A stretch of 64,000 nt of DNA from an uncultured delta proteobacterium (lineage in GTDB: Bacteria; Myxococcota_A; Polyangia; Palsa-1104): positions 448,001 through 512,000 of the forward strand of contig CAWAWS010000007.1 of assembly GCA_963785725.1 (NCBI GenBank), read 5' to 3'. A program made the position numbers and the translations under genes. Numbering within the stretch: position 1 is the stretch's first letter; every line of letters starts with the position of its first letter. Under the pieces are notes generated by a model. It saw only the letters and a program-made list of their open reading frames with translations. It had not been told where the DNA came from and made no database searches. Below, in pieces: positions 10,523 to 33,926 of this stretch.

Positions 10523-10596
10523 TGCGGTCTCACCGTGCGGCGCAGGAATCGTCCGTCGCGCGCCGATCGATGACGTAACCTACGCCGCACGGTGTT

Positions 10597-11454: not shown

Positions 11455-11509
11455 CGCCGGCGCGCCGCCGGTTCCGCGATCGCACAATAAACGTCAGCCG
11501 GCCCGGCTC

Positions 11510-11635
11510 ATTGTGCAAACGCGCCCTGAAATTGTGCGTTCGCATCATGGCGCCGCCGATCGGCAGCTCTTCATGGTGCGTTCGCACCATGCTGTTGTGC
11601 ATTTGCGTCATTTCGTTGTGCATCTGCACCACGGT
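11510..11635 (+). repeat. 21-bp-period palindromic repeat array (6 positions, 1 degenerate)
   Basis: Units at 11510, 11531, (11552), 11573, 11594, 11615, e.g. ATTGTGCGTTCGCATCATGGC and GTTGTGCATCTGCACCACGGT. Confidence 0.85.
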
Positions 11636-12464
11636 CGCCCACGCCGCCGGCGCGACGCGCGTGGCCGTCTTGCCGCTGCGCGAATCGGCGGCGGGCGCGG
11701 CCACGGCGCGCCTCGAAGCCGCGCTGGCCGAAGCCTTGCCGCTCATCCCCGGCGTCACCGCCGTCAACCTCACGAACGGCAAGTTTACGTCGCCGCGCAA
11801 AGGCGAAGGCCGCCTCGAGTCGCAGCCGTCGGCGCGCGCGTTGGCGCTCGGCCGCGAGCTGGGCGCGCAGCGCGCGGTCGCCGTCGAAGCGACGCCGCTC
11901 GGCGAAGGGCTCATCATCTACGTGCAAGCGCTGGAAGTGCCGGGCGGCCGCTCGCTCGGCTCGACGACGTTCGCGCTCACCGGCGGCGCCGCGCGCGAGC
12001 CCGGCGACCTCGACGCCGCCCGCGCCGCGCTCACCCGCGTCATCGATCCCGCGCGCTACGTCGGTCGCCTCGACATCAAGCTCGACGTTCAAGGCGCCGA
12101 GGTCCAAGTCGACGGCCGCCTCGCGCGCTCCGGCGTCGTCGAGTTACCGGTCGGCACGCACGCCCTGCGCGTCACCCATCCCGCCTATCACGACTTCTTG
12201 CGCTTCCTCGAGGTCGGCTTCGATCAAACGCTGCCCGTCGCCGTCAATATGGCCGCCTATCCGCTGGCCGAAGGTGAAATGACGGAAAGTCAGCGCCGCG
12301 GCTTGCCGATCAATACCCGCAAGCTGCCTTGGTACCGCCGTTGGTATTCGGTAGTCGGCGCGGGAATCGTCCTGACGGGTGTCACTTTGGGCGTCGTTTG
12401 GCTGGCGCGCCCCGGCGTCCACGATGATTCTTCGGCGAGCTTCAAGCCAGTGACGACGCCTTAA
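11589..12464 (+). CDS. PEGA-domain protein with C-terminal membrane anchor
   Basis: Signal peptide ending VAHA, PEGA (GAEVQVDG..GTHALRVTHPAY), PWYRRWY followed by TM; start codon uncertain. Confidence 0.75.
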   Translation: MLLCICVISLCICTTVAHAAGATRVAVLPLRESAAGAATARLEAALAEALPLIPGVTAVNLTNGKFTSPRKGEGRLESQPSARALALGRELGAQRAVAVEATPLGEGLIIYVQALEVPGGRSLGSTTFALTGGAAREPGDLDAARAALTRVIDPARYVGRLDIKLDVQGAEVQVDGRLARSGVVELPVGTHALRVTHPAYHDFLRFLEVGFDQTLPVAVNMAAYPLAEGEMTESQRRGLPINTRKLPWYRRWYSVVGAGIVLTGVTLGVVWLARPGVHDDSSASFKPVTTP

Positions 12465-12564
12465 AATCAGCGCTCGATTCATCCGTATTTCTTAAGCGGG
12501 TTCTTTTAAGACGACTGTCGCCAATCTAACGGGTCAATCGTGCATTTGCGATACGCGCCGAATC

Positions 12565-12628
12565 ATTTTGTCAGACAAAATCTATTGTGAAAACAATATC
12601 TTGACGGCATTTGTCGCTTAAATACAGT
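12565..12628 (+). promoter_or_regulatory. Putative sigma70 promoter with two adjacent operator-like palindromes
   Basis: TTGACG (12601)-16 bp-TACAGT (12623); palindromes ATTTTGTC-A-GACAAAAT (12565-12581) and TATTGT-GAAA-ACAATA (12583-12598). Confidence 0.5.
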
Positions 12629-12685
12629 ATCTCGCAGAAAGGCTCTCTCCGGCCTTTAGCAAAAAAACCGGGGGTGTGTGAATCG

Positions 12686-12856
12686 ATGGTCGGAAAAAGC
12701 AAAGATCCAAAGGGAACGCGAATCACGGTCCGCATCTCCGATAAGGACCTCAAAGATCTGCAGGTGGAAGCCAAGCGGCGCAACACCACGATCGGTGGCG
12801 TCGTACGCGTGCTCATCCGCGACGGAATCCGCCTTTTGGAGCCGGCCAAGCGCTAA
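12686..12856 (+). CDS. Ribbon-helix-helix (CopG/Arc-like) DNA-binding protein, 56 aa
   Basis: Alternating strand RITVRIS, helix DKDLKDLQVEAKRR, turn, helix TIGGVVRVLIRDGI. Confidence 0.75.
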   Translation: MVGKSKDPKGTRITVRISDKDLKDLQVEAKRRNTTIGGVVRVLIRDGIRLLEPAKR

Positions 12857-12946
12857 TTTTTCGTTATTGTTTCGTCGAGAAATGAATCGAGTTTCGCCGG
12901 AGCAATATTCACTTACTCGTCAGCGACTGCTCAATCGCGCGCTCGT

Positions 12947-13921
12947 TCAACCCGCTTTGAGCATGGCGAAGAGGCGATTGATCTTGATGTTCGCCTGCGG
13001 AAATTTGCCGTCGCCGTAGTTGGCCGTCGCTTCCTGAAAGAGATCCTCGACCGACTTGCGATCGCCGCCGTCGAGCTTGCGGCCGTGCATGGCCGCCGAG
13101 AGCCGCGCCATCTTGGCCGAGATGAACGAGCGATCGATCTTGATCTCCTCGACGGTGGCGAGCAGCTGATCGGCGTCGTATTTGGCGCGCACGTAGTCGG
13201 CCTTCTTCATGGCGTCGCGGGTCTCGTCGACGAGCTTCGACGTCCCCGGCGGCAAATCGGACGTCAAGAGCCCGCGCTCCTGCATCAGCTTGAGCGCCTT
13301 CTTGTAGACGGGCTCGACGTCGTGCGCCGTGTAATGCAACCCCTTGGGCAGCTCGATCTTCGCCGGCACCGCCGCCATCGCGCCGCAGGTGTCGCGCTCG
13401 CGCCGCGCCAACGTCGCCTCGCGCGACGCCAGGTCCTTCTCGCGCTGCCCGACGTCGCGCTCGCGCTCGGCCAGCTCCTTCTCGCGCGACGCCACCGTCT
13501 GCTCGCGCCGCGCCGCGCGCTCGAGCGGGTCGGCGCCGGGCGACGTCGCGACCACCTGCGTCGCCTTTTGCACCAGCTGATCGCGCGCTTTCAACAGCAG
13601 ATCGAGCTTGTCATTGACCTGCTGCTCTTGCTGCGACAACTCGCCCTCTTTGGTCAGCAGCGACTTCTCGGCCTCGTCGATCGCCGCCTGCCCGGTCGAG
13701 TCGTGCCCCAGCTGCGAGCGGCGCTCGACGAGCTCGGCGCGCGCGTCCGACAGCTTCTTGCGCTCGCGCTGCAGCATTCCGCGCTGGCCCAGCAGATCGG
13801 TCTCGCTCTTCTTGAGGGACTCGTCTTCGGCGGTGATGGGCGCGACGTCGGCGGGCGGCGGTGGGCGATGGCAGCCGCCAGCCGCAGCGACGAGCAGTAA
13901 GGCTAAGGTTAGGCGCAGCAC
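12947..13921 (-). CDS. Hypothetical coiled-coil lipoprotein
   Basis: Lipobox-like LLVAAAGGC; long heptad region (REKELAERERDV). Confidence 0.75.
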   Translation of the reverse strand: MLRLTLALLLVAAAGGCHRPPPPADVAPITAEDESLKKSETDLLGQRGMLQRERKKLSDARAELVERRSQLGHDSTGQAAIDEAEKSLLTKEGELSQQEQQVNDKLDLLLKARDQLVQKATQVVATSPGADPLERAARREQTVASREKELAERERDVGQREKDLASREATLARRERDTCGAMAAVPAKIELPKGLHYTAHDVEPVYKKALKLMQERGLLTSDLPPGTSKLVDETRDAMKKADYVRAKYDADQLLATVEEIKIDRSFISAKMARLSAAMHGRKLDGGDRKSVEDLFQEATANYGDGKFPQANIKINRLFAMLKAG

Positions 13922-13997
13922 GCCCGCATGATAGCAGCACGGCGGCGGAACCTCTAGAAACGCGCGGTTAGGTCAGGGCCGAGCGGAGCGGCGGGCG

Positions 13998-14088
13998 CGG
14001 CGACGATCGATTCCGGAGGATGGTGGGCCCGGAAGGTTTCCCCCGACCTCCCGCCCCAATTATCGGCGCGCCGTCGCAAAAGTTGCGT
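13998..14088. repeat. Dispersed intergenic element, copy 1
   Basis: 31-nt CGGCGACGATCGATTCCGGAGGATGGTGGGC identical to 60064-60094; patchy similarity continues (TTTCCCCC, TTATCG, AAGTTGCG). Confidence 0.8.
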
Positions 14089-14128
14089 GCCGAATCCACT
14101 CGCCGCCGCAACGTCGCGCGACGACGAG

Positions 14129-14653
14129 CTACTCGAACGTGACGAGCGCCTGCCCGGCCTCGACCGGCTGCCCCTCTTTGACGCCGACCGCCTTGATCTT
14201 GCCGTCGCGCGGCGACTTCAGCTCGTTCTCCATCTTCATCGCCTCGACGACGACGACGCCTTGCCCCGACTTGACCTCGTCCCCGACCGCGACGAGCAGC
14301 TTGACCACCTTGCCCGGCATCGGCGACTGCACCGACGCGGCCGCCGCTTTCGGCGGCGCCGCGGCGCGTCCCGCGACCTTCGCGCGCGCCGACTGCAGCT
14401 TCAACGGCACGCTGATGTTGTCGACGGTGACCGTCAGATCGGGCGCCGCGCCATCGACGTCGACGAGCGCCGTCACGCCGCCGCCTTCGGGCAACAGCGA
14501 CCAGCTCGACGCGCGTCCCGTGCCGGCGACCTTGACCGCTTCGTAGATGCGCACGCGGCCGGCATGACCGACGCGCACGCGGTTGCCTTCGAGCTTCTCG
14601 ACGGTGATGTCGCGCTCTTGCCCGCCGACTTCGACGCTATAGCGATGGATCAT
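14129..14653 (-). CDS. Biotin carboxyl carrier subunit of an acyl-CoA carboxylase
   Basis: SPMPGKVV and EAMKMENEL biotinylation motif. Confidence 0.9.
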   Translation of the reverse strand: MIHRYSVEVGGQERDITVEKLEGNRVRVGHAGRVRIYEAVKVAGTGRASSWSLLPEGGGVTALVDVDGAAPDLTVTVDNISVPLKLQSARAKVAGRAAAPPKAAAASVQSPMPGKVVKLLVAVGDEVKSGQGVVVVEAMKMENELKSPRDGKIKAVGVKEGQPVEAGQALVTFE

Positions 14654-14982
14654 GACGAGGCGGAAGCGGTCGCCGAAGCGGGAAGCGGGAGCTCGATGCC
14701 GAACAGGTCGGCCCATTCTTTAGCCGCCCACAACACGCCCACGAGCGTATTGGTCAGGTCACCAAAGAGCAGCGGCTCGTTCTTCTCGAAATAGTAGTGA
14801 CCGATGAACTGCAGCGCCCAGCCGGCAGCGAACATTCCGCCGCCGAGCAGCGGGTTGAACGGCAGCACGGGCAGCGAAGCCACGATCATCGGAATCCCGA
14901 CCATGTGCGTCACGCGCGTGCCGAGCTGGCGATGGCCCTCGGCATATTCTTCCAAATACTCGCGAAGCGACTTTGTTGCCAT
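14650..14982 (-). CDS. DUF962/Mpo1-like membrane protein
   Basis: Y..GH, THMVGIP, GWALQFIGHYYFEKNEP. Confidence 0.85.
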   Translation of the reverse strand: MATKSLREYLEEYAEGHRQLGTRVTHMVGIPMIVASLPVLPFNPLLGGGMFAAGWALQFIGHYYFEKNEPLLFGDLTNTLVGVLWAAKEWADLFGIELPLPASATASASS

Positions 14983-15011
14983 GCGCGGAGCATACTATAT
15001 TCCGCGCCCGC

Positions 15012-16178
15012 ATGTCGCTCGCCAACCTAGTAGCGCAAAGACGCATCCTCGTCTGCGTAGGGTCCGGCGGCGTCGGCAAGACGACCACCGCCGCATCATT
15101 GGGTTTGGCGGGCGCCCGCGCCGGTCGTCGCACCCTCGTCCTCACCATCGATCCCGCCAAGCGGCTCGCCAACGCGCTCGGTTTGTCGTCGCTGGGCCAC
15201 GATCTGCAAAGCGTCCCGGCGGAGAAAGTCGCGCTCGGCGGCGCGCCCGTCTCCGGCTCGCTCGACGCCATGATGCTCGATCAAAAGCGCGCCTTCGACG
15301 AGATCGTCGTCAAGTACGCCAAAGATCCGGCGGCGCGAAAGCGCATCTTCGAGAACCGCATCTACCAGCAGATCTCGTCGACGCTGGCGGGCTCGCACGA
15401 ATACGCGGCCATGGCCAAGCTGCACGAAATTGTGCAAACGCAAAAATACGATCTCATCATCCTCGACACGCCGCCGACGGCCAACGCGCTCGACTTCTTG
15501 GACGCGCCCGAGCGGCTCACCGCGGCCATCGACTCCTCGGCGATTCAGTGGTTCACCAAGCCTTATCTGGCGGCCGGTCGCTTCTCGCTCAAGGCGCTCG
15601 GCCTCGGCGCCAGCTTCGTCTTGAAGCGGCTGGCGCGCTTCGTCGGCTCGGCGTTTCTCGAGGACATGGCGCAGTTCTTCGTCGAGTTCAACGCCATCTT
15701 GGGCGGCTTTCGCGAGCGCGCCAAAGAGGTGTTCGACCTCCTGCGCGGCGCCGACGTCGGCTTCGTCCTCGTGTCGTCGGCGGAGCCGCTCTCGATCGAC
15801 GAGGCCATCTACTTCCACGATCGCCTGGTCTCGTCGCACATGCCGCTCGGCGCCTTCGTCGTCAACCGCGTCCACTCGGCGGCGGCGGCGACGCTCGACC
15901 GCGAGGCGCTCATCGCCAAGCTGCAGGCGCGGCCCGAGCTCGTCGGCTACAGCGGCGACGACATGGTGCAGATCGCGTCCGACTTCGATCGCACGCACCG
16001 CGAGTTTCAGCAGCTGGCCGACACCGACGCGCGCCAAGTGCAGCGACTGCGCGATCGCTCACGCGGCCAGATCGACGTCATCACCATCCCGTTCTTCGAT
16101 CAGGACATCTACGACGTCAGCGGGCTCTCGCAGATGATCCGCTATCTCGTCGGCGAAGACGCCAAGTCCGCCGCCTGA
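15012..16178 (+). CDS. ArsA/Get3-family ATPase (Walker A GSGGVGKTT)
   Basis: GSGGVGKTT, TIDPAKRLA, LDTPPT, ALDFLDAP, VVNRVH. Confidence 0.9.
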   Translation: MSLANLVAQRRILVCVGSGGVGKTTTAASLGLAGARAGRRTLVLTIDPAKRLANALGLSSLGHDLQSVPAEKVALGGAPVSGSLDAMMLDQKRAFDEIVVKYAKDPAARKRIFENRIYQQISSTLAGSHEYAAMAKLHEIVQTQKYDLIILDTPPTANALDFLDAPERLTAAIDSSAIQWFTKPYLAAGRFSLKALGLGASFVLKRLARFVGSAFLEDMAQFFVEFNAILGGFRERAKEVFDLLRGADVGFVLVSSAEPLSIDEAIYFHDRLVSSHMPLGAFVVNRVHSAAAATLDREALIAKLQARPELVGYSGDDMVQIASDFDRTHREFQQLADTDARQVQRLRDRSRGQIDVITIPFFDQDIYDVSGLSQMIRYLVGEDAKSAA

Positions 16179-16198
16179 AATCGTAGTCCGCTAAGGCT

Positions 16199-17541
16199 TC
16201 AGCGCGCGATCTTCCAGCTCTTCAAGACCTCGGCGGCGACGGCAGCGCCCGTGCCTTTGGGCGCGCCGAACACGAGGACGAGCTTGTCGCCGTCGCGCTG
16301 CACCAGCCAATCGTCGTGCGCGCCGTCGGCCGCCGCCAGCTTCGCCAGCAGTCGCTGCGCGGCCGGCTCCGCCTCCTTCGCTTCGCTCTCGGAATCCCAC
16401 ACCGAGAGGTCGACGATGGTCAACGCGCCGTCGGGCGTGCCGTCGCTGTACGCGACCTGACGATCGCCGCCCCAACCGGCCGCCGCCTTCTCGGCGATGG
16501 CGTCCGCCGGCTGCTCGGGCGGCGCGCCCGGCGTCGCCTTTTTCGCCGGTGCCGGCGCCGGCGGCGGCGCCGAGTCGAACAAGATCTTGAACACCAGCTC
16601 GCCAAACACGTCGCGGCGAATCTCTTTGCGCGCGCCGAGCTGCTTGAGCGGCACCGGCGTGATCTGGATCGGATGCTCTTTGTTCAGGTATTTCTCGGGA
16701 TGGATGATCTGCTCGGTCGACTCCGGCGGCGACTTGAAGGCGTCGTCGATGCGCGACCAGGGCGCGCCTTTGCGCAGCGCCTCGACGAACGTCAACCCCT
16801 GCAAATAGGGGAAAATCAGCGTCTCCTTCACGAACTGCGGCGCCTTGGCGAACTCCGGCGTCGAGCCGAAGCTGCCCTGCAACATCTGCTTGCCGACCTG
16901 CTCGATCAGATCGGCAGCTGATCGACGGGCAATCCCATCGCCTGCGCCTGAAACTCCATCATGACCGCCGTGCCGTCGCCTTCGACGAGCGCCGACTGCG
17001 CCATCTGCTTGTCGTCGTTGTCCTTGATCGGCGTCGCGTACTTCTTGAGGTCGAAGTGCTGATCTTGCAGCGCGTGCTCGATCTCGTGCGCCATCGCCGG
17101 TCGCTGCAGCTCGAGCGGCAGCCAATCGGAGACGTAGAGCTTGCCCGCGAACGGATCGTAGAAGCCCGCCACCTGCTCCATCAGCAGATCGATCGTCATC
17201 TTCTCGTAGTCGAGATCGGGCGGAAACAGCCCCAAGCGCTTGAGCACGCGGCCTTCGTTGCGAAATTCCTCGGGCGTGAACTCGATCCGAATGCGCTCTT
17301 TGAGCTTGGCGCCGATCTGATCGCGCGACAGCACGTCGCGCTGCAGCGGCTTCAGGATCGCCAGGCCGCGAATGGCCGACACTTGGTGGGCGATCTCGTC
17401 GGCGGCCGCGAGCAGCGCGTCTTTCGGGGCCTTGGCGGGCGCTTTGGCGGTGGTGGCGGGCGTGGCCGGCTTCTTTTTTGCGTTCGCACCAAAAGGCAGG
17501 AGCAGGACCAGCGCCGCGGCCAGAAATCTCATGCGCGGCAT
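16199..17541 (-). CDS. Secreted putative zinc metallopeptidase (HEIEH), split by an indel near 16910
   Basis: Signal peptide, [26 protein letters not shown] in ORF 16906..17598; continues [24 protein letters not shown] in ORF 16199..17125. Confidence 0.75.
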
Positions 17542-17591
17542 CCTAGCACCTTGCGCGCGCCGCCGGTCCGCCATAGGTTTCAGGCGCTCCC

Positions 17592-21161
<3,570 letters not shown>

Positions 21162-21167
21162 ACCCGT

Positions 21168-22796: not shown

Positions 22797-22924
22797 GAGG
22801 AGCGTGCGCTTTGCGAGCGGTCGTTTTGCTGGAGCGATCGCGGCGCGATCGCGGATGGCTGCTGCGCGAGGCGAGAGGACGCGCGCGCCACGGTCAGCGA
22901 CGCGCGCGTTCGACCGTTCGGCGA

Positions 22925-23470: not shown

Positions 23471-23652
23471 GAGCCCGCATTATAGGGCCGCGCGAAAAAG
23501 GTCTAGACACGAATTTTTAATCCAGATATTGTGTAGTTGAAAATACTTAATTTTTATATAAAAACATAGGCTACCGAGGGCTTCGTCGCGCCCGATGGCG
23601 AGGTTTCGCCGGGGAGCGGCGCGGCCGGTTTGGACGCTCGAGCGGAGGATGA

Positions 23653-24156: not shown

Positions 24157-24216
24157 CGATCAGGGCGCGGCAAGGTGGCGGTTGATGTAGCCGTCGCCGC
24201 GTGCTACCTCCACGAC

Positions 24217-25329
24217 ATGCGGAAGCAGCAGCTGACGTGGTGGCGCAAGTCGGGCTTCGTGCTCGGCTCGGGCGCATTGATGCTGATGGGCGCGCTCATG
24301 CACGCCGCCTGCGAGGACTCGAAAGGCGCGCGCGCCTCGACGCAGAAGCCGGAAGACCTGGCCGAAGTCCTGGCCAAGGTCGACGACGTCACCATCACCG
24401 TCGGCGAGTTCCAAGAGCGCATCAACCAGCAGTCGCCTTACGTGCGGGCGCGCTACACGTCGCTGGAGCGCAAGAAGGAGTTCCTCGACAACCTGGTGCG
24501 CTTCGAGGTGCTGGCCAAAGAGGCGCAGCGGCGCGGGCTCGATAAAGATCCCGAAGTCGTCCGCACGATGAAGCAGGTCATGATCCAGAAGCTGATGAAG
24601 GACGAGGTCGAGCAGCAGAAGGTCGAGGACATCAGCGACGCCGAGTGCCGCAAATACTTCGAGGCGCATCCCGAGGAGTTCAACAAGGCCGAGGAGGTGC
24701 GCGTGGCCTCGATCTTGGTCAAGGATTCGTCGACGGCGAAGAAGGTGCTGGCCGACGCGCGCATCAAAGGCGTCGACAATCAGCAGTTCCGCAACCTCGT
24801 GGCCGAGTATTCGCAAGACTTGGCGACCAAGGATCGCGGCGGCGATCTGCGCTACTTCGACGCCAAGACGAAGGACGTGCCCAAAGAGATCGTCGACGCG
24901 GCGTTCAAGCTGCAGAACATCGGCGACGTGTCCGAGCCGCTGCGGACGTCGCAAGGCATCGTCATCTTGAAGCTGACCGGGCGGCGCAAGGCGATCACGC
25001 GCCGCTTCGAAGAGGTCGTGCAGCAGATTCGCAACAAGATCTATCGCGATAAGCGCCAGGACGCGATGGAGACGTTCACCAAGACGGTGCGCGACAAGTC
25101 GAACGTCAAGATCGACGAGGCCAAGCTGGCCAAAGTGCAGATCGAAGGGCTGGGCGCCGGGCAGTTTCCGGGGCCGGGCGTGCCGCCGCCGGGGCCGGGG
25201 CAGTTCCATCCGGGCGCGCCGGGCGCGCCGCAGGCCACGCCGGTCGCGCCCGGCAATCCCGCGGGCGCGTCGACGATCGCGCTGCCACCGCCGGGATCGC
25301 CCAAAGCGCCCGAGCCGGCGAACAAGTAA
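24217..25329 (+). CDS. Parvulin (PpiC-type) peptidyl-prolyl isomerase/foldase lipoprotein
   Basis: VLAKV, YSQD..TKDRGGDLRYF, VSEPLRTSQG; Pro-rich tail. Confidence 0.9.
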   Translation: MRKQQLTWWRKSGFVLGSGALMLMGALMHAACEDSKGARASTQKPEDLAEVLAKVDDVTITVGEFQERINQQSPYVRARYTSLERKKEFLDNLVRFEVLAKEAQRRGLDKDPEVVRTMKQVMIQKLMKDEVEQQKVEDISDAECRKYFEAHPEEFNKAEEVRVASILVKDSSTAKKVLADARIKGVDNQQFRNLVAEYSQDLATKDRGGDLRYFDAKTKDVPKEIVDAAFKLQNIGDVSEPLRTSQGIVILKLTGRRKAITRRFEEVVQQIRNKIYRDKRQDAMETFTKTVRDKSNVKIDEAKLAKVQIEGLGAGQFPGPGVPPPGPGQFHPGAPGAPQATPVAPGNPAGASTIALPPPGSPKAPEPANK

Positions 25330-25352
25330 CGGCCTAGCTGAGTCATAACCCC

Positions 25353-26336
25353 GTGAAGCTCGATTTTCGTCGCCTGTCGTTCGCGCTCGCTGTCGTGGTC
25401 GCGTCGGTCGTTTTGGGCTCCACGGCGCGCGCCGCGCGCGTCGTCGAGCGCGTCGTCGCCGTCGTCAATGACGACGTCATCCTCGAGACGGAGCTCGATC
25501 AGTTCGCGGCGCCGCAATATCGCGGGCCCGATCCAGAGACGCCGGAAGGCAAGAAGGCGTGGGACGACACGAAGCGCAAGGCGCTCGAGCTGATGATCGA
25601 CTCGAAGCTGATTCAGGAGCAGGCGACCGAGCTCAAGCTGGCGGTGACGTCGGAAGAGATCGATCGCGCCATCGAGCAGGTCAAGCAGCAGAACAAGCTC
25701 GATGATTCGACGTTCGTCGAGGCGCTCAAGACGCAGGGCTACACGATGGACGGCTATCGCAAGAGCCTGCGCAAGCAGATCCTGGAGCTCAAGGTCGTGT
25801 CGCAGGCGGTGCGCTCGCGCGTCTCGGTCGGCGACGAAGAGGTGCGCACCTATTACAAGCAGAACGAGAAGGCGATGTCGGGCGCCGATCGTCAGGTGCG
25901 CTTGCGGCAGATCTTGATCACGATGTCGGACAAGATGGGCGACGACGAGGTCGAGCGGAAGAAGAAGGTGGCGCTCAAGGTCGTCGAGCTGGCGCGCGAA
26001 GGCCATTCGTTCGGCGAGCTGGCCAAGCAGTACAGCGACGACGAAGGCACGAAAGAGAGCGGCGGCGACCTCGGCTTCCTATCGAAGGGCACGCTCGTCG
26101 ACGAGCTCGACGAAGCGGTGCAGGCGATGGAGCCGGGCGACGTGCGCGGCCCGATTCGCACGGCGCGCGGCTGGGTCGTGCTGCAGCTGGTCGAGCGCAA
26201 AGCGGCGGATATCCGGCCGTTCGAAGAGGTCAAAGAGGCGCTGCGCAAACAGCTCTACGATCAGCAAGTGGAGAAGGCGCAGCAGTCGTGGCTCAAGGAG
26301 CTGCGCAAGAAGGCGCACGTCGACATTCGCTACTGA
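25353..26336 (+). CDS. surA: SurA-like chaperone/peptidyl-prolyl isomerase
   Basis: RVVAVVNDDVILETEL N-domain, FGELAKQYSDD..GGDLG, WLKELRKKAHV. Confidence 0.85.
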   Translation: MKLDFRRLSFALAVVVASVVLGSTARAARVVERVVAVVNDDVILETELDQFAAPQYRGPDPETPEGKKAWDDTKRKALELMIDSKLIQEQATELKLAVTSEEIDRAIEQVKQQNKLDDSTFVEALKTQGYTMDGYRKSLRKQILELKVVSQAVRSRVSVGDEEVRTYYKQNEKAMSGADRQVRLRQILITMSDKMGDDEVERKKKVALKVVELAREGHSFGELAKQYSDDEGTKESGGDLGFLSKGTLVDELDEAVQAMEPGDVRGPIRTARGWVVLQLVERKAADIRPFEEVKEALRKQLYDQQVEKAQQSWLKELRKKAHVDIRY

Positions 26337-26419
26337 TTGTGCATTTGCACCACGAAATTGTGCATTCGCAACACGATATTACGCAGCTGCACAATGTAAT
26401 TGTGCGTTCGCATCAGGCG
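26336..26419 (+). repeat. 21-bp-period palindromic repeat array (4 units)
   Basis: ATTGTGCATTTGCACCACGAA / ATTGTGCATTCGCAACACGAT / ATTACGCAGCTGCACAATGTA / ATTGTGCGTTCGCATCAGGCG. Confidence 0.9.
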
Positions 26420-26440
26420 ACGGCGCGGCCCGAGACGACG

Positions 26441-26779
26441 TCAGAACTCCCAGGTGAGCGGGCGGCCGCCGACGACGTGCAGGTGGATGTGGAACACGGT
26501 CTGACCGGCGTGCGGGCCGGTGTTGATGACGGTGCGGTAGCCGTCGGCGAGGCCTTCGGCGGCGGCCAGCTGCTTGGCCAGCACGTGCAAGTGGCCGACG
26601 AGCGCTTCGTCCGCCTCCGTCAGCTCGTTCAGCGACGCGATGTGCTGGCGCGGAATGACGAGCAGATGCGTCGGCGCCTTGGGACGAATGTCGCGGAAGG
26701 CGACGGCGCGGTCGTCTTGCAGCAGCAGCTCGGTCTTGATCGTGCCGTCGGCGATCTTGCAGAATAGGCAGTCGCTCAT
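26441..26779 (-). CDS. hinT: Histidine triad nucleotide-binding protein
   Basis: CLFCKI, GQTVFHIHLHVVGGR. Confidence 0.95.
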   Translation of the reverse strand: MSDCLFCKIADGTIKTELLLQDDRAVAFRDIRPKAPTHLLVIPRQHIASLNELTEADEALVGHLHVLAKQLAAAEGLADGYRTVINTGPHAGQTVFHIHLHVVGGRPLTWEF

Positions 26780-26828
26780 GCGCGGTTCTCCTGTCGTCGA
26801 GCCTGTTGTCGGGCAGAAACGCTAACAC

Positions 26829-27575
26829 ATGCGCCGCCGCCTGCGGGTCGTCAGCTGGAACGTGGGGCGCCTCTATTCGCCGACGCACAACAATCGGCTC
26901 GACGACGCCGACGTGCCGGCGGTGGCGGCGGTGCTCGCCGAGCTGCATCCCGACGTCGTGCTGCTGCAGGAGCTGATCGACGAGCGGCAGCTGACGGCGC
27001 TGCAGTCGCGAATGTTCCCGCGCCTCGGGGAATTTCGCGCGGCGCTCGCGACGAAGTGCGGCTACGACCGGCGCGTGGCGGCGTTGGCGCGCGTCGAGCT
27101 GCAGCCCGTGTTCGACGAGGCGCTGCTCGGCCAGACCACGCGCGGCGTCGTCGGCGTGCGCTTCGTTCTCGACGGCGACGGCGGCGGCGACGTCGTGGGC
27201 GCGGCGTTGTCGGCGCACTTCGACGTCTTCGGCGCCGATCGCCGCGCCGAGCAGGGCAATGCGCTGGCGGAGCTGGCCGAAGCGCGCGCCGAGCCGCTCG
27301 TCATCTTTGGCGGCGACCTGAACATCGATCCGAGGATTGCCGCGGCCTCCGCCGCCGGCACGCACAACCTGCTCGACGTACGCACCTTCGCCCGCCTGAC
27401 GCGCAACTTCGTCGATGCCGGGCGCGATTCCGGGGCAACCCTGCTCGGTATCTTTCGCGTCGATCACCTGTTCGTAAGAGGCGCGACTCGTGCAGTTTTG
27501 TGCGTGTCTCCGCGACGGCTTCCGCTCGGAGATCATCACCCGCTGGTGCTAGACGTAGACGTGGATCCGACGTAG
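26829..27575 (+). CDS. Endonuclease/exonuclease/phosphatase family protein
   Basis: VSWNV, DVVLLQE, GGDLN, VDHLF, GDHHP. Confidence 0.85.
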   Translation: MRRRLRVVSWNVGRLYSPTHNNRLDDADVPAVAAVLAELHPDVVLLQELIDERQLTALQSRMFPRLGEFRAALATKCGYDRRVAALARVELQPVFDEALLGQTTRGVVGVRFVLDGDGGGDVVGAALSAHFDVFGADRRAEQGNALAELAEARAEPLVIFGGDLNIDPRIAAASAAGTHNLLDVRTFARLTRNFVDAGRDSGATLLGIFRVDHLFVRGATRAVLCVSPRRLPLGDHHPLVLDVDVDPT

Positions 27576-27602
27576 CATCCACGAGCTGAAGGAGGCTCAC
27601 CG

Positions 27603-27932
27603 GTGGAGCACCGCAGGTCGGATCGACGGTATGAACGAAGTGTCGCCATCGACTTCAAGCACGAGTCGACGACGTACACGGCGCGTACCCGCAACATCAG
27701 TTTAGGTGGCGTGTTCATCGAGACCGAGCAGTCGTTGCCGTTTGGTACGCGCTTGGTGCTGAAGTTCCCGGTGCCGACGCAGGCCGAGCCGATCGAAGTC
27801 GAAGGCCAAGTGCGTTGGTTGGAGCTGGAAGACGGTCGACTTCGCGGCCTGGGCGTGCGCTTCGAGGGGCTGCGCGCGCGTGATGTCTGGGCGCTCAACA
27901 AATTTTTCGAGAAGCCGCTCGAAGAAAAATGA
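27603..27932 (+). CDS. Stand-alone PilZ domain protein (myxobacterial type)
   Basis: RRSDRR and NISLGGVFI motifs, GQVRW, GLGVRF; GGAGG RBS. Confidence 0.9.
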   Translation: MEHRRSDRRYERSVAIDFKHESTTYTARTRNISLGGVFIETEQSLPFGTRLVLKFPVPTQAEPIEVEGQVRWLELEDGRLRGLGVRFEGLRARDVWALNKFFEKPLEEK

Positions 27933-27972
27933 AATGATGCGATCGCACAATTATCTTATGCATATGCACAAT
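27931..27972 (-). repeat. 21-bp-period palindromic repeat array (2 units, reverse orientation)
   Basis: Reverse strand reads ATTGTGCATATGCATAAGATA / ATTGTGCGATCGCATCATTTC. Confidence 0.85.
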
Positions 27973-29148
27973 TTGGCGGCCGCGGCCGCCGTTTCATTGT
28001 TGACGCTGTCCACGGCGCACGCCGCCGATCCGACGCCCGTGCCGGCGCACGCGCCCGATCGCCAGCCGATCGCCGTCGTCTGGATGGGCGACGCGTCGAG
28101 CCTGGAGCTGGGCGCGGCGCGCACCGTCGCCGAAGTGAACGCGGCCTTGGCGCGCACGGCCACGGCTCGTCCCGTCGACGGCATCGAAGATCGGCGCCTG
28201 CTCGTCGAAGGCGGCCCGTCGACGAAGGTGCAGCTCCTCTTGCACAGCGCCGAAGCCAGCTTCGTGAAGCTCAAATATGCCGACGCGGCGCGCGATTACG
28301 AAGCGGCCGAGACGGTGCTGCTCAACGAAGTGCCCTTGACGGTGTTGCGGCAGCTGTTGGGCGACGTCGAGCGCAGCCTGCTCGCTTGCTACGATCAGCT
28401 CGGCCGTCCCGTCGACGCCGCGCGCGCCGCCGAGCGCCTCAGCTGGGCCGCCGGCAGCAACGACGACATGAAGCGGCTGGTCGAGAAGTATCCGTTGGCG
28501 CGCACGTGGGAGCCGGCGTTGGCGCCGGTCACCGTCGACAGCGAGCCGGCGGGTGCCATCGTCTTCCGCAATCTGCGCGAGCTGGGCGCGGCGCCGCAGA
28601 CGTTCCCGGGCGGCGATCCGACGATCGACGTCATCGATGTGGAAGCGCCGGGATTTCGCCGCGGCCATCGCGAGCTGCGCGCGGGCGAGTCGGTGAAAGT
28701 GGCGCTGGTGAAGGAAGATCGGCTGGGCGTGCTCGTCGACGCCATCCGCGCGCAGTCGCCCGACGCCAAGCCGATCGACGTCGCCGCCGTCGGCCGTCGC
28801 GTCGGTGCCAAGCGCGTGCTCGTGCTGTTGCCCGATGGGCCGAAGAAGCTGCTCGGCCGCTGGCTGGACGTCGCCAAAGCGCAGTGGGCGCCCGAGACGA
28901 CGCGCGTCGACGCCACGGGCGCGCCGGCGATGGAGAAGCTGGCGCTGTACGCCGCGCCGCCCGAGCAAGCGGGTCCGCCGCCCGAGCTCGTCGCCACCAC
29001 GGCGCCGCCGCCGAAGAGGAAGTCGGTCGGCCCGTGGGGCAAGTGGTACACGTGGACGGCCGCGGGCGCCGTCGTCGCGCTCGTCGCCGGCCTGCTCATC
29101 GCCGAGCACGTCGGCAGCGATCAGCTGACCGTGACCGCGTCGCATTAG
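27934..29148 (+). CDS. Secreted hypothetical protein with PEGA-like domain and C-terminal TM
   Basis: Signal peptide ending TAHA, VTVDSEPAGAIVF, PWGKWYTW followed by TM; exact start uncertain (27934/27958). Confidence 0.7.
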   Translation: MMRSHNYLMHMHNLAAAAAVSLLTLSTAHAADPTPVPAHAPDRQPIAVVWMGDASSLELGAARTVAEVNAALARTATARPVDGIEDRRLLVEGGPSTKVQLLLHSAEASFVKLKYADAARDYEAAETVLLNEVPLTVLRQLLGDVERSLLACYDQLGRPVDAARAAERLSWAAGSNDDMKRLVEKYPLARTWEPALAPVTVDSEPAGAIVFRNLRELGAAPQTFPGGDPTIDVIDVEAPGFRRGHRELRAGESVKVALVKEDRLGVLVDAIRAQSPDAKPIDVAAVGRRVGAKRVLVLLPDGPKKLLGRWLDVAKAQWAPETTRVDATGAPAMEKLALYAAPPEQAGPPPELVATTAPPPKRKSVGPWGKWYTWTAAGAVVALVAGLLIAEHVGSDQLTVTASH

Positions 29149-29218
29149 CCAGCCGCAACCCGCACGGCCGCAACACATTCGCTTCAACTTCCACGCGCTC
29201 TTGAGTTACAAGCTTCCG

Positions 29219-29971
29219 ATGAACCGTTGGGGACTGCGCGTCTTCGCGCTGGCGCTCGTCATATCGCCTGTGGCCGGCTGCAAGAAGAGGCAACAGCAAC
29301 AGCCGGAGGTCCATAAGCTCTCGGGCGCGCTGCAGCTGCAGCTGACGCCCGGTCGCACCGGCGAGGCGCGGATTCGCTACGAGCTCATCGAGGACGGCAC
29401 CGCGCAGCCGGTCATCGACATGCACCTGCCGTGGAAGATCTTGCGGACGATGGCCGACGGCACGACGCAAGTGGGCCTCGGGCCGCCGACGTTCCCGGGC
29501 GCGACGACGCCGGCCTGGCCGGCCGGCAGCACCGTGACCTTGCAGCTCGACGCGCTCGATCGTGACTCGCACTGGATGCCGCGCGCGGACTTCCACGCGC
29601 CGGTCGAGGCGCAGCTGGCGCTCGAGAACGCGCTGCGCGTGCGCTACGCGACCGGCGCCGGCATCATCGCCTTTCCGACGACGCCGATTCACGCCGGCGA
29701 CACGTGGAGCGCCGACGATCCGCCGGCCGGCGGCGTGCACACGCATCGCCAGTCGAAGCTGCTGTCGTTGGACGGCGACGGCAAGCGCGCGCGCATCGCC
29801 ATCACCGAAGACTCGACCGTCGACGATTCGACCGCCAGCGAGCACGTCAAAGGCGAGATTGTGTACGCGCTCGACGAGCCGCTTCCCGTCGGTGGCTGGC
29901 TGCGCATCGAGAGCCGCCTCGCCGACGGCCACCAGCGCACCATCGCCTATTTGTACGGCAACAAGAAGTAG
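29219..29971 (+). CDS. Hypothetical lipoprotein
   Basis: Lipobox VAGC after hydrophobic stretch. Confidence 0.7.
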   Translation: MNRWGLRVFALALVISPVAGCKKRQQQQPEVHKLSGALQLQLTPGRTGEARIRYELIEDGTAQPVIDMHLPWKILRTMADGTTQVGLGPPTFPGATTPAWPAGSTVTLQLDALDRDSHWMPRADFHAPVEAQLALENALRVRYATGAGIIAFPTTPIHAGDTWSADDPPAGGVHTHRQSKLLSLDGDGKRARIAITEDSTVDDSTASEHVKGEIVYALDEPLPVGGWLRIESRLADGHQRTIAYLYGNKK

Positions 29972-29994
29972 ATCGGCGCTAAGTAAACAGCTGT

Positions 29995-31761
29995 TTACTT
30001 CTTGTCGGACCACGGCGGCGGCAACACCGGCGGACGCTCGGCCGCTTTCTGCGTGCGCTGCAGCTCGATCTCGCTCATCAGCAGCGCCGGCGCCACCGTC
30101 GACACCGGGACGAAGCCGCTCTCGGCGCCGCAGAAGCCGTTGAAGACGCCTTCGGTGTCGGAGGTGGCGATGATGCGCGAGACCGTCGTCAGCGGCGTGC
30201 CCACCATCTCGACGCCGCGCACGAGCGTCTCGGCGCCGGTCTTGGCGTCGACGCGATAGACGAGGCGCGGCTCGCCTTTGAACGCTTGGTAGCCGTAGTT
30301 GGACGTGTTCGTCGAGCCGCCGGTGATGTCGCGGATGATGAGCCCGAAGGGCTTGCCTTGGCGGCGCACTTCGTCGAGCAACAGCTCCTTCAGCTTCGAG
30401 ACCGGCACCTTCTTCGTCGAGCGTAAGAATAAGTTGGCCATGCGGCCCATCGGGTTGGCGCTGCCTTCGGCGCGGCCGTGGCCGTTGGAGTGCAGCGAGC
30501 CGGCGATGGGCGTGCGCGACTTCAAGTAGTCGCGCAAGACGCCGTTGTCGATGAGCGTGACCTTGCGCGCGACGACGCCCTCGTCGTCGTAGCTGTACCA
30601 GCCGTTGAGCGACACCGGGCGATGGGCGATGGCCGGGCCGCCGCCTTCGGCCGGCGCGTCGATGCCGCCGCCGGTTCGCACCGTCGGGTCGTCGATGACG
30701 CTCAAGAACGTCGGCAACACTTTGTGCCCGACCTGGCCTTTGAACGTGCGGCCCTCTTTTTCGTCGTTCTGGCGCTCGCCTTCGAGGCGATGGCCGACGG
30801 TCTCGTGGAAGAACACGCCCGCCGCCTCTTCCATCAAAATTGCTGGACCGGTATAGGGATCGATGAGCGGCGCCTCGCGTAACGCGCGCAGCTCGCTGGC
30901 CAAGAGCGCGATGGCGTCGGCGAGCTGTTTGTCGTCGGGCAATTCGTCGGGCGTGCGGCCGTAGAAGTCCTTTTCGTGCTCGAGCAGCATGCCGTCTTTG
31001 GCGCGCGTCGAGGCGTTGACGTGCAGCGCGAAGATCGTCCGCTCGGTGACGATGGTGCTGCCCTCGGAGTTGACGAACCAGCGCGTCACGCGGTCGCCGG
31101 AGATCTTGATGGCGCCTTCGAAGAGGTCGGGATAGGCGCGAAAGAGCGCGCTGGCTTTGGTCGCGCGCGCCGCGAACAGCGGCTCGTTCCAGGAGAACGG
31201 CGAGGTCTCGTCGACGTGATGCGCCGCCGGCTCGCGCGAAAAGCTGGGCAGATTCTCGTCTTCGCTGATCGTCGTCGCCCGCTTGCCGCGCTTCTTCGCG
31301 TAGGCCGCCAGCGCGCGCTTGTATTTCGCGTCCGTCAACAGCCACAGCGTGCCGCGCAAGGCCTGCGGATCGTCGTCGAGCGGCGCTTCCGTCGGCGCCT
31401 CCCACTGATCGGAGTCGCCCATGTCGAACGCCAGCTCGCGATCGGACGACGTGTTGTCGAACTGATAATCGCCGACGCGTACCTCGGCCCAAGCCTGCCG
31501 CGCGTGATTGTCGGTCACGTCGGTGGGCGCGCCGAAGCGGGCCGACACCGAGTGCTGCTGATAGTCGCGCACCGCATAACCGATGAAGTAGGGCGCCTCG
31601 AAATGTTTCAGGCGCAGCTTGGCCATCGAGCGCGACAGCTCGGCCTGCATCGCGGCCAACACCGGCGAATCCTGCATCGCGCCCGGCGCCGACTGCGCCG
31701 CCTGCGCCGGAAACGCGCCGAAACTCGTTATCAATAACGCGATCGATATATGTTTTTTCAT
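29995..31761 (-). CDS. TldD/PmbA-family metalloprotease with signal peptide
   Basis: FFHETVGHRLEG, YDDEGV, SNGHGR, GFCGAESG; start overlaps sctN stop (ATGA). Confidence 0.9.
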   Translation of the reverse strand: MKKHISIALLITSFGAFPAQAAQSAPGAMQDSPVLAAMQAELSRSMAKLRLKHFEAPYFIGYAVRDYQQHSVSARFGAPTDVTDNHARQAWAEVRVGDYQFDNTSSDRELAFDMGDSDQWEAPTEAPLDDDPQALRGTLWLLTDAKYKRALAAYAKKRGKRATTISEDENLPSFSREPAAHHVDETSPFSWNEPLFAARATKASALFRAYPDLFEGAIKISGDRVTRWFVNSEGSTIVTERTIFALHVNASTRAKDGMLLEHEKDFYGRTPDELPDDKQLADAIALLASELRALREAPLIDPYTGPAILMEEAAGVFFHETVGHRLEGERQNDEKEGRTFKGQVGHKVLPTFLSVIDDPTVRTGGGIDAPAEGGGPAIAHRPVSLNGWYSYDDEGVVARKVTLIDNGVLRDYLKSRTPIAGSLHSNGHGRAEGSANPMGRMANLFLRSTKKVPVSKLKELLLDEVRRQGKPFGLIIRDITGGSTNTSNYGYQAFKGEPRLVYRVDAKTGAETLVRGVEMVGTPLTTVSRIIATSDTEGVFNGFCGAESGFVPVSTVAPALLMSEIELQRTQKAAERPPVLPPPWSDKK

Positions 31762-33131
31762 TTTGCGAATAGGTTGATGAGGCGCTGGCGCGAGTCGGCG
31801 AAGTGGGCCTCTTCGTCGCGTCCTTGGCGCAGGAAGGCGTCGACGGCGGCGACGCGCGCCAACGCATCGTCGGTGGCCGGGTCCGCGCCTTTGCGGTAGG
31901 CGCCGAGCAGCACGAGGTCGCGCTGGCGCTCGTAGGTCGCCAGGACCTCGCGCAGCCGCGCCGCCGCGCGCCGATGGCCGTCGTCGACCAGCTCGTCCAT
32001 GACGCGCGACAAGGAGCGCACCGGATCGAGCGCCGGCCACTGATTGCGCGCGGCGCGCTCGGCCGAGAGCACGATGTGACCGTCCAAGATCGCGCGCACC
32101 TCTTCGGCGATCGGATCGTCGCCGTCGTCGCCCGAGGTCAAGACGGCGTAAACGGCGGTGATCGAGCCTTTGTCCGACTGGCCCGAGCGCTCGAGCAGGC
32201 GCGGCAAGAGCGCGAACACCGACGGCGGATAACCTTGGCGCGCCGGCGGCTCGCCCGCGGCCAGGCCGACCTCGCGCTGCGCTCGCGCCACGCGCGTCAA
32301 CGAGTCCACGAGCAGGAGCACGCGCTTGCCCTGCTCGCGGAAATATTCGGCGACGGCGGTGGCGGTCAGCGCCGACTTCAAGCGCAGGAGCGGCGCCGCG
32401 TCCGACGTGGCCACGACGCAGACGGCGCGGCGGCGGCTCTCGTCGTCGAGCTGCGTCTCCAAGAAGTCGCGCACCTCGCGGCCGCGCTCGCCGACGAGGC
32501 CGATGACGATGACGTCGGCTTCGGTGTGGCGCGCGATGTGGCCGAGCAGCGTCGACTTGCCGAGACCGGGGCCGGCGAAGAGGCCGATGCGCTGGCCCTC
32601 ACCGACGGTGGCGACGGCGTCGATGGCGCGCACGCCGACCGACAAGGCGCGCGTGACGCGGCGGCGCTGCAGCGGATCGGGCGCGGCGCGCTCGACCGGC
32701 CACCAGTCGAGATGGGTCGCGCTGCCGGCGCTGCCGGCGTTTGCCGCGGTGGCGTCGAGCGGCGGGCCGCCGTCGATGGGCTCGCCGAGGCCGTCGATGA
32801 CGCGGCCGAGCAGCGGCGCGCCGCAGCGGATGGAGAACGGTCGGCCGGTCGGGCGCACGACGCTGTCGGGACCGACGCCGGCGGCGTTGCCGAGCGGCAA
32901 GAGGATGACCTGCTCGCCGTGGAAGCCGACGACCTCGGCGCGCAGCGGGCCGCCGCGGGCGCGCTCGACGATGACCAGCTCGCCGGTGCGCGCGCCGGGC
33001 GCGGTCGCGCGCAAGACGAGCCCGACGAGCTCGGTGACGCGGCCGGCGACGCGCGGCGCGGTCACGCCGTCGACGACGCTGAGCGCGGCTTCGAGCCGCA
33101 GCTTGTCGCCGCTCACGCCGCGGCCTCGCAC
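31758..33131 (-). CDS. sctN: Type III secretion/flagellar-type ATPase (SctN/FliI family)
   Basis: GEGQRIGLFAGPGLGKST, GERGREVRDF, DSLTR..AQREVGLAAGEPP..GYPPSVF, LDGHIVLS. Confidence 0.9.
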   Translation of the reverse strand: MRGRGVSGDKLRLEAALSVVDGVTAPRVAGRVTELVGLVLRATAPGARTGELVIVERARGGPLRAEVVGFHGEQVILLPLGNAAGVGPDSVVRPTGRPFSIRCGAPLLGRVIDGLGEPIDGGPPLDATAANAGSAGSATHLDWWPVERAAPDPLQRRRVTRALSVGVRAIDAVATVGEGQRIGLFAGPGLGKSTLLGHIARHTEADVIVIGLVGERGREVRDFLETQLDDESRRRAVCVVATSDAAPLLRLKSALTATAVAEYFREQGKRVLLLVDSLTRVARAQREVGLAAGEPPARQGYPPSVFALLPRLLERSGQSDKGSITAVYAVLTSGDDGDDPIAEEVRAILDGHIVLSAERAARNQWPALDPVRSLSRVMDELVDDGHRRAAARLREVLATYERQRDLVLLGAYRKGADPATDDALARVAAVDAFLRQGRDEEAHFADSRQRLINLFAK

Positions 33132-33215
33132 GGGCGCGACGGACGAAACGCGGGCGGCTGTAGGCGTACGAGCGGCATCGACGATGGCGGCGTCCTCACG
33201 ATCGACACCGCGCGC

Positions 33216-33827
33216 CTACTCCGGTTCCCCGCGCAGCGCGCGTTCGATCGCGTCGAGCTGCGTCGACAGTCGCGCGTCGATGACGCCGAGCTCGGTCTCG
33301 ACGATGCACCCGCCGCGGCTGACGCCCGGATCCGCACGAAAGACAACCACTTGCGCCGCGCGACAGCGTTCGACGAGGCGCGGCTTGCCGCGTTCGAGCG
33401 CCTCCAGGTCTTCGGCCGCGCAGCGCAAGACGAGCTCGCGTGGCTCGCCCGCGTGCTTGAGCGCCGCGCGCGCCACGTCGACCACGGCGCCGGCGTCGAC
33501 TTGCAGCTCGCGGCCCAAGATCTTCTCGGCGATTCGCACCGCCAGCGTCCGCAGCTCGCTCTCGGCGTTCGCCCGCGCCCGCGCCGCCGCTGCCCGCGCG
33601 CCGACGAGCAGCTCGGTCACCGCCGCCAGGCCGCGCTCGCGCCCTTCGGTCTCGGCGCGCCGGCGCAGCCGCTCGATCTCGTCGTGCGCCGCCTGCAGCT
33701 CGCGCTCGGCCTGCTCGCGCGCCTCGGCGATCAGCCGCTCGGCCTCCAGCTTGGCGTCGAACACGTCGGCCTGCACGATGGCGCGCTTGACCTGCCCGCT
33801 CGCCCCCGACTTGATGACCTTGCTCAT
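33216..33827 (-). CDS. sctL: Type III secretion stator (SctL/FliH family)
   Basis: MSKVIK start, A/E/R-rich helix with GxxxG, AEKILGREL, GGCIVETELGVIDARLSTQL. Confidence 0.9.
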   Translation of the reverse strand: MSKVIKSGASGQVKRAIVQADVFDAKLEAERLIAEAREQAERELQAAHDEIERLRRRAETEGRERGLAAVTELLVGARAAAARARANAESELRTLAVRIAEKILGRELQVDAGAVVDVARAALKHAGEPRELVLRCAAEDLEALERGKPRLVERCRAAQVVVFRADPGVSRGGCIVETELGVIDARLSTQLDAIERALRGEPE

Positions 33828-33841
33828 GCCGCGTCGCCAAT

Positions 33842-33904
33842 ATTGTGCATTCGCATCATGTCATTATGCATTTGCACTACGTTATTATGCATTTGCATCA
33901 TGAG
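33842..33904 (+). repeat. 21-bp-period palindromic repeat array (3 units)
   Basis: ATTGTGCATTCGCATCATGTC / ATTATGCATTTGCACTACGTT / ATTATGCATTTGCATCATGAG. Confidence 0.9.
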
Positions 33905-33926
33905 CGGCCGAACGATCATGGCCCGA

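Follow-up and report, generated by a model that had tools for sequence, protein, structure and literature searches.

A regional cloud of 21-bp-phased palindromes, predicted to be bound by a PhaR paralogue, in a genome of the Polyangia

Four palindromic arrays with a 21-bp register lie in a 64,000-nucleotide stretch of DNA (the window, contig C7, positions 448,001-512,000) of an uncultured member of the Polyangia, whose genome, G000, comprises 8.89 Mb in 47 contigs, has 68% G+C and is 88% complete. These arrays are the thin edge of a single regional cloud of sites. Judging from motif, gene context and phylogenetic distribution, the sites are very probably bound by PhaR-B, a paralogue of the polyhydroxyalkanoate (PHA) regulator PhaR, whose gene lies in the dense core of the cloud, 7 kb past the window end. 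The initial annotation, made from the window alone, missed the PhaR-family match of the motif, the nearby paralogue and the single regional cloud.

The palindrome and its regional cloud

An iterated weight matrix, applied genome-wide, resolved the unit as the 18-bp palindrome RTKRTGC-RNNY-GCAYMAY with 3 unconstrained bases after it. With up to one mismatch, TTRTGC-N4-GCAYMA matched 33 times in the window, counting both strands, against a mean of 0.95 (maximum 5) over 100 shuffles. Genome-wide, the strict pattern was found 57 times with a spacer of 4, and 0-7 times with each other spacer from 0 to 10. The distances of up to 130 bp between sites above 10 bits fell at 21 bp in 32 cases, 42 bp in 14, 63 bp in 8, 84 bp in 5 and 105 bp in 3, with at most 3 at any other distance. 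The enrichment and the 21-bp peak, which the initial annotation had named as checks, are thus both present, and so are all four arrays in the exact register that it described, including the degenerate slot at 11552, which scores -29 bits. Its two-unit reverse array exists and starts at 27934, not 27931. Among the four single matches that it called weak, the one at 12537 is so (11 bits), but those at 5667 and 15429 are strong (24 bits each), and the one placed at 18931 starts at 18927 and scores 17 bits. The bases between the half-sites, which it took to vary freely, are constrained, the central four being R-N-N-Y.

The counts of sites in the cloud use a 15-bit cut. At this level, 73 of the 115 sites in the genome fall in C7:453-540 kb, where 1.1 would be expected, and above 20 bits the share rises to 64 of 72 in about 1% of the genome. 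This clustering is not circular, since a matrix built only from 78 sites of relatives also gives it, placing 45 of 56 strong G000 sites in the same interval. Counted per 10 kb from 450 kb, the sites number 7, 3, 6, 3, 0, 0, 13, 21 and 20, and then 0; the window covers the thin left part of the cloud, and the densest part lies beyond its right end. The dense core contains a seven-slot array in frame within a metallophosphoesterase gene, as well as sites before metF and argC. The arrays had been described as a dispersed family, whereas 17 of 20 are in C7:459-540 kb. Within the cloud there are 71 sites with the N4 spacer versus none with N3. The right edge, near 539.5 kb, is common to G000 and two relatives, G002 and G003.

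Some 400 kb or more separate the cloud from each end of C7. Contig C19 carries dnaA and three canonical parS-like sites, C6 carries parB, and C26 has a dif-like site at 217 kb, the patterns used being those that we take to be the parS and dif consensus. Since all of these lie on other contigs, on the evidence of the assembly the cloud marks neither the origin nor the terminus; noise in the GC skew prevented its assignment to a replichore. The parS-like sites and dnaA are 9 kb apart (C19:114 kb and 123.7 kb), and the sole parB match is at C6:333 kb. Outlying strong sites or arrays were seen at C4:42,511, C14:197,465 and C16:197,508, in glycosyltransferase and cytochrome-like clusters; the orthologues of the C4 and C14 clusters also carry sites in the relative G012.

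PhaR-B as the predicted binder

The DNA-binding domain PHB_acc_N (PF07879) is recognised in PhaR-B with 61.7 bits against a cut-off of 25. For the equivalog model TIGR01848, with its cut-off of 109.45 bits, the scores stay lower, at 69.8 for PhaR-B, 76.4 for its G004 orthologue and 90.9 for the canonical paralogue. A tree separates three PhaR-like clades in the order, and PhaR-B constitutes clade B, which has an N-terminal G-R-P motif within a basic stretch and a long tail. This motif is presumably AT-hook-like. The published PhaR sites read TGCRNYGCASMA (PMC6201568), TG[N]TGC[N]3GCAA (PMC3206438) and YGCRNYGCR with AT-rich arms (PMC12542648). The palindrome linked to PhaR-B has the same TGC and GCA triplets, with a spacer of 4 instead of 3.

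The spacer follows the clades. Within 450 bp of the gene, the best N4 score was 13-28 bits at 11 of 11 PhaR-B genes. At the genes of clade C, the sister clade, it was at most 7 bits in all 14 cases, with N3 sites of 11-25 bits at 10 of the 14, and 36 canonical PhaR rows gave at most 10 bits for N4 and 11 for N3. The protein encoded at the clade C loci (L060-L073) is short, has the PhaR domain and bears an RRRGRPP or RRR motif; these loci have no cloud. Among 41 genomes, in counts that are descriptive because related genomes are not independent, the strict single-site pattern had 3-41 matches in 9 of the 11 with PhaR-B and 0-1 in the 28 where PhaR-B was not found; two half-complete genomes had 10 and 33. 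In G002 the cloud reaches the contig end where the PhaR-B gene would be, and in G007 part of the linked PHA-like cluster is present, with 8 sites. A wider PhaR search gave 80 loci, 9 of them PhaR-B genes already counted; the other 71 have 0-3 N4 sites, and L149, a Polyangia protein with an AT-hook-like motif, has none. The closest records in this search were titled Polyangia or Myxococcales. PhaR-B was also the sole gene common to all 10 loci compared, a result that is circular, the loci having been chosen by that gene, and that carries no weight here.

A dimeric or larger assembly was approached by structure prediction for the G004 orthologue. The predicted monomer was of limited quality (mean pLDDT, the per-residue confidence, 69; pTM, the overall fold confidence, 0.46) and had no match in the PDB at E ≤ 0.001. 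The four-copy model scored 0.59 versus 0.02 for the best control, with a contact agreement of at least 48% and a pLDDT of at least 60, a mark that 20 of 30 solved pairs and 1 of 23 single chains attained. Self-association of this orthologue is thus supported by a model, and PhaR proteins have been reported as tetramers (PMC3206438).

Several other identities were considered. ArgR boxes are 18 bp long and 3 bp apart, and ArgR was the first suspect because of this 18+3 geometry and the sites before argC; another site lies between argC and argB. That the binder is a different protein, be it ArgR or a ParB- or MatP-like segregation factor marking the origin or terminus, is nevertheless very improbable. 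No ArgR domain was found in G000, ArgR occurs in only 4 of 21 genomes, all with no strict sites, and the markers of origin and terminus are on other contigs. In particular, the canonical parS-like sites near dnaA on C19 have no counterpart in the cloud, which speaks against a ParB centromere, and the contig with the dif-like site carries a single weak array, which speaks against a MatP/matS-like terminus. A CRISPR or a structured RNA was also set aside, with no Rfam match in 40 kb of the dense core and no variable segments of spacer length; the initial annotation had likewise excluded CRISPR, and the variable parts measure only 2-4 and 3 bp.

The coordinates are collected in Table 1. Two gene observations in the window may be added. 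On its minus strand, at 31758-33827, there are genes for a type III secretion/flagellar-type ATPase and a FliH/SctL stator, with no other export genes recognised nearby. At 17598-21161 the mfd reading frame appears split in the assembly, possibly through frameshifts or assembly errors.

Table 1. Sites, arrays and genes of the cloud (window positions unless a contig is named)
Feature	Position	Strand	Remarks
Single site, 24 bits	5667..5684	.	within coding sequence; left edge of the cloud; G003 has a site at the same place
Single site, 16 bits	11471..11488	.	39 bp ahead of the 11510 array; additional to the initial annotation
Array, 5 sites over 6 slots of 21 bp	11510..11635	.	starts 11510/11531/11573/11594/11615; final units reach into the hydrophobic N-terminus of the gene that follows
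Weak single match, 11 bits	12537..12554	.	under the 15-bit cut
Single site, 24 bits	15429..15446	.	within coding sequence
Single site, 17 bits	17475..17492	.	close to 5′ end of coding sequence; additional to the initial annotation
Single site, 17 bits	18927..18944	.	within mfd; G001 and G004 have sites at the same place
Array, 4 sites	26336..26419	.	starts 26336/26357/26378/26399; between convergent surA-like and HIT genes; junction empty in 5/5 relatives
Array, 2 sites	27934..27975	.	starts 27934/27955; begins at start codon of PEGA-like gene downstream of PilZ gene
Array, 3 sites	33842..33904	.	starts 33842/33863/33884; between TPM-domain gene and FliH/SctL-like gene
Window's part of the cloud	5667..64000	.	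extends past the right end of the window
Dense core	G000 C7:514,706-539,498	.	54 sites >15 bits
phaR-B (predicted binder)	C7:518,924-519,535 (L001:8924-9535)	+	203 aa; KRKRGRPPR motif; PF07879 domain; two sites 30-70 bp upstream

Site anatomy, history of the locus and possible functions

With genes called by our own gene caller, so that start positions are approximate, 14 of the 31 site clusters lie in coding sequence, 8 at tandem, 5 at divergent and 4 at convergent junctions. The 14 intragenic and 4 convergent clusters bear out the earlier view that these are not simple promoter operators. Its proviso that a known operator confined to promoters would make the arrays ordinary applies in one half, i.e., the operator type is a known one, but confinement to promoters is not seen. 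The sites leave their mark on the proteins. Codons ending in A or T make up 50% of the 155 under sites versus 12% of 27,406 elsewhere; the array in the metallophosphoesterase gene lies within a 64-residue in-frame insertion relative to G004; other arrays encode N-terminal residues, and the one at 27934 replaces those of the PEGA-like gene, where 5 of 5 relatives have no site. Point substitutions, some of which alter amino acids, gave rise to the argB site within a conserved reading frame; it is present in 4 of 5 genus members and none of 4 other codon-aligned genomes (19 loci examined). In another soil run, perhaps not independent of the source campaign, contigs extend into the in-frame array with different units; an assembly artefact is therefore improbable for this array, which seems to differ from strain to strain.

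Among relatives the spacings are 21-23, 31-33 and 42-45 bp, i.e., whole helical turns, G000 using mainly 21, in support of the earlier prediction of protein-binding dyads on one face of the DNA. On G007 contigs C182, C227, C297, C325 and C335 (L241-L248), site pairs are mostly 32-33 bp apart, or three turns, not 21. At four of the five variable arm positions, pairing does not exceed that of shuffled arms (at position 3, 25 of 73 sites are paired vs 35 after shuffling), and perfect arms occur in 1 of 73 sites. This lack of co-variation fits a protein site on duplex DNA and not a hairpin, and on the same ground an RNA hairpin or cruciform was rejected. The initial annotation had also suggested a very small mobile repeat. 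A selfish or mutation-driven element (like the repetitive extragenic palindromes, REP, or the RPE), hopping locally without benefit, could account for arrays gained at junctions that are empty in relatives, for their in-frame entry into genes, 21 being a multiple of 3, and for the varying units in the related soil strain. It is hardly probable all the same: no Y1/RAYT transposase was found in G000 (88% complete), the argB site arose by point substitutions, units are barely more alike within an array (0.69) than between arrays (0.62), many positions persist across species in flanks 67-89% identical, and the arms do not co-vary. A REP/BIME (bacterial interspersed mosaic element) repeat was dismissed because no RAYT transposase was found in the 88%-complete genome and arm pairing was at or below the shuffled level at 4 of 5 variable positions.

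In the relatives, phaR-B belongs to a PHA-synthase-like cluster. PhaC-like neighbours flank it in 9 of 10 (TIGR01836 268 bits, under the cut-off of 365), and the cluster further holds an acyl-CoA synthetase, a short-chain reductase and a phasin-sized gene with no Pfam match; site pairs overlap most of its gene starts. In G004 the cluster spans L049:16820-L050:7579 (contig C145) and comprises phaR-B between two class III-like PhaC genes, a pair of small genes and genes for several exported proteins; equivalents were seen in G001, G003, G007, G008, G010, G012, G017 and G021. The outer flanks in G000 are syntenic with G003 and G004, while the blocks on both sides of phaR-B are gone, in a contig without N. 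No PhaC orthologue was found in G000, the best match being a hydrolase of 24-29% identity. By comparison of the assembled sequences, the putative regulator is all that remains of the PHA-like cluster at this locus. Within the genus, g1, many site positions are shared and others are private. In a single case, a site 57 kb from the G002 cloud is also in G001 and G004 and is missing in G000, where the region is on another contig. In Myxococcota, PHA genes have been noted before, without reference to PhaR in the passages concerned (PMC11821767).

The reading that we favour, tentatively and at somewhat under even confidence, is that the roughly 70 sites in 87 kb load PhaR-B into a coated, probably bridged, chromosome domain. 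This keeps to the chromosome-organising role that the initial annotation had suggested. In this model TGC-N4-GCA would be recognised by a PhaR-B dimer, and the A/T-rich flanks by its AT-hook-like motif; dimers that follow one another at 21, 32 or 43 bp would be in contact along one helix face, and their cooperative loading would coat the 87-kb region. The sites may have begun as operators of the PHA-like cluster and of nearby promoters (argC, metF and phaR-B itself), and would later have spread through point mutation and 21-bp tandem expansion into places that tolerate them. What favours a structural domain is that the regulator outlived its operon and that sites away from any promoter are retained despite their cost. 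Under any reading, some sites (those at phaR-B, argC and metF) probably still regulate.

Other functions were weighed against this domain. One is a decoy sink or local reservoir, in which the sites titrate PhaR-B and hold it near its own gene and a few real promoters. Site density is indeed highest near phaR-B, any tolerant position would do, and PhaR is known to be switched off by granule-bound sequestration (PMC9049629, PMC12542648). An extension has the G000 arrays growing to replace the lost storage granule as a sink for the repressor, G000, without PhaC-like genes, having the longest 21-bp arrays. Both the sink and its extension are unlikely. The cloud is already present in G001, G003 and G004, which keep their PHA-like genes; deleting phaR-B would have been a simpler fix, yet phaR-B alone survived between two lost blocks; and a right edge common to three species meets no obvious need of a sink.

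An enlarged ordinary regulon, in which each site represses or road-blocks its own gene and the targets merely happen to be neighbours, some of them distant, seems distinctly unlikely. Its targets would be the PHA-like cluster, argC/argB, metF and nucleoside/base catabolism, together with distant polysaccharide clusters. No shared pathway would account for sites within mfd, in linker segments of proteins, where convergent genes end and, as species-private gains, at conserved junctions. The packing of the strong sites, 64 of 72 within 1% of the genome, is also much denser than that of the dispersed PhaR regulons in two papers (PMC6201568, PMC12542648). What such a regulon would explain is the site upstream of argC in G000, G004 and G010, the site pairs that, in relatives, overlap the starts of almost all genes in the PHA-like cluster, and the outlying sites in glycosyltransferase clusters that also bear sites in G012. 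PhaR connects polyhydroxybutyrate (PHB) to exopolysaccharide in S. meliloti (PMC12542648), and ArgR was not found in the site-rich genomes.

A third possibility, a granule anchor, would have PhaR-B hold DNA and storage polymer together, tying PHA-like granules to one locus for both daughters as a sequence-specific counterpart of PhaM or PhaF. PhaR is described as a binder of both DNA and PHB (PMC3570403), and PhaM and PhaF as tethers that hold granules on the nucleoid and control how they are inherited (PMC9049629). In relatives, two class III-like PhaC genes enclose the one for PhaR-B. The tightest cloud is, however, that of G000, where no PhaC orthologue was found, PHB is described as releasing PhaR from DNA and not as forming a stable three-part complex (PMC3570403, in part), and a second cloud in G000 belongs to an unrelated motif; an anchor is accordingly judged quite improbable.

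A number of points weigh against PhaR-B as the binder or against the domain. Clade B is supported as one clade with 93/74, and the G000 protein is a long branch in it; G006 and G013 have PhaR-B yet no strict matches, and only looser sites near the gene. The confident modelled interface joins two copies only and is therefore silent on bridging by a tetramer. The cloud is lopsided, reaching 65 kb to the left versus 20 kb to the right, with an empty stretch at 482-514 kb, and 13 of the 31 clusters occupy tandem or divergent junctions, from which they could act as ordinary repressor sites. The fraction of sites inside the neighbourhood is 36/45 in G000, 23/31 in G003, 28/57 in G004 and 13/25 in G002, so that relatives keep many outside. 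In G007, G012, G017 and G021 the sites are on many contigs that map to scattered G000 regions, in assemblies too fragmented to distinguish a cloud from dispersal, and the 40 kb flanking the G010 PhaR-B locus has no sites; in view of these scattered small contigs and empty flanks, a tight cloud is shown only for the genus g1. The PHA genes could sit in unassembled DNA, the genome being 88% complete. Finally, many intragenic PhoB sites elsewhere are inert, though described as unconserved (PMC9934606).

Comparison with known systems and significance

The closest kin of PhaR-B are the PhaR/AniA/PhbF repressors (PMC6201568, PMC12542648, PMC3206438, PMC3570403, PMC9049629). PhaR-B shares with them the PF07879 domain, a TGC...GCA palindrome with A/T-rich arms that also stands upstream of the regulator's own gene, and, in relatives, an apparent linkage to PHA-synthase-like and phasin-sized genes. 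It differs in the spacer of 4 instead of 3, in the N-terminal AT-hook-like motif, in scoring below the TIGR01848 cut-off, in about 70 sites per 87 kb with nearly half of the clusters intragenic and 21-bp arrays of up to 7 slots, and in the absence of PHA-like genes from the G000 locus. Given the score below the cut-off and the departure from the N3 spacer, the PhaR-B system is treated as a variant and not as a standard PhaR member.

In function, the nearest analogues would appear to be the clusters of Rok and the architectural sites of GalR. Rok of Bacillus subtilis is a repressor that clusters at specific loci and has been proposed to serve both regulation and genome architecture; A/T-rich DNA is its preferred target, and its clusters form long-range loops (PMC11841835), whereas here there is a strict 18-bp palindrome in a genome of 68% G+C and one main cloud around the regulator's own gene, looping being conjectural. 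No homology between the two proteins is expected. GalR of E. coli, a metabolic repressor, has extra sites without local regulation for which chromosome restructuring was proposed (PMC5110547); those sites are genome-wide, while the ones in G000 are crowded into 1% of the genome, are phased and alter protein sequence. PhaM of Cupriavidus and PhaF of Pseudomonas, which tether granules to the nucleoid, resemble PhaR-B as PHA-linked proteins with a basic DNA-binding tail; they belong to different protein families, no defined site cloud is described for them in the available text (PMC9049629), and in G000 no PhaC orthologue was found. A literature search largely limited to papers outside subscription journals met with no report that PhaR organises chromosomes or that sites form clouds around the gene of a regulator.

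A second palindrome in G000, TGGT-N3-ACCA (GntR/FadR-type), is multiplied in a similar way, as one regulator-type palindrome in short stretches, but in four of them (C7:340-400 kb, C7:420-440 kb, C33:40-80 kb and C39:300-320 kb) as opposed to one for the PhaR-B motif. One of its stretches adjoins the canonical phaR gene at C7:384.5 kb. A third, CAAC-N3-GTTG, has 8 of its 35 genome-wide matches in 21 kb (C26:151,579-172,086), 45-65 kb from the dif-like site, and is possibly a weaker cloud. Beyond the GntR-type and PhaR-B motifs, de novo dyad scans of the genome yielded candidates of which 3 of the 4 inspected were protein repeats.

The feature looks selected without the logic of a promoter, and it now has a named candidate protein and a named site, which makes it directly testable as a feature of the chromosome. 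The work also defines a specificity variant of PhaR, N4 against N3, and points to a PHA-synthase-like cluster in Polyangia of which a literature search of partial coverage found no description. It is conceivable, though doubtful, that this lineage turns ordinary metabolic repressors into locus-specific organisers, with an operator that spreads in cis, is selected despite the rewriting of proteins, outlives its operon and marks a domain; two unrelated motifs in one genome would be cases of this, and the cloud of PhaR-B sites may originally have been a centromere-like anchor for granules. If the cloud is structural, it would be a snapshot of a specific repressor becoming a nucleoid organiser, and the relatives would show the stages, from a few operators to a cloud plus operon and then to a cloud without the operon.

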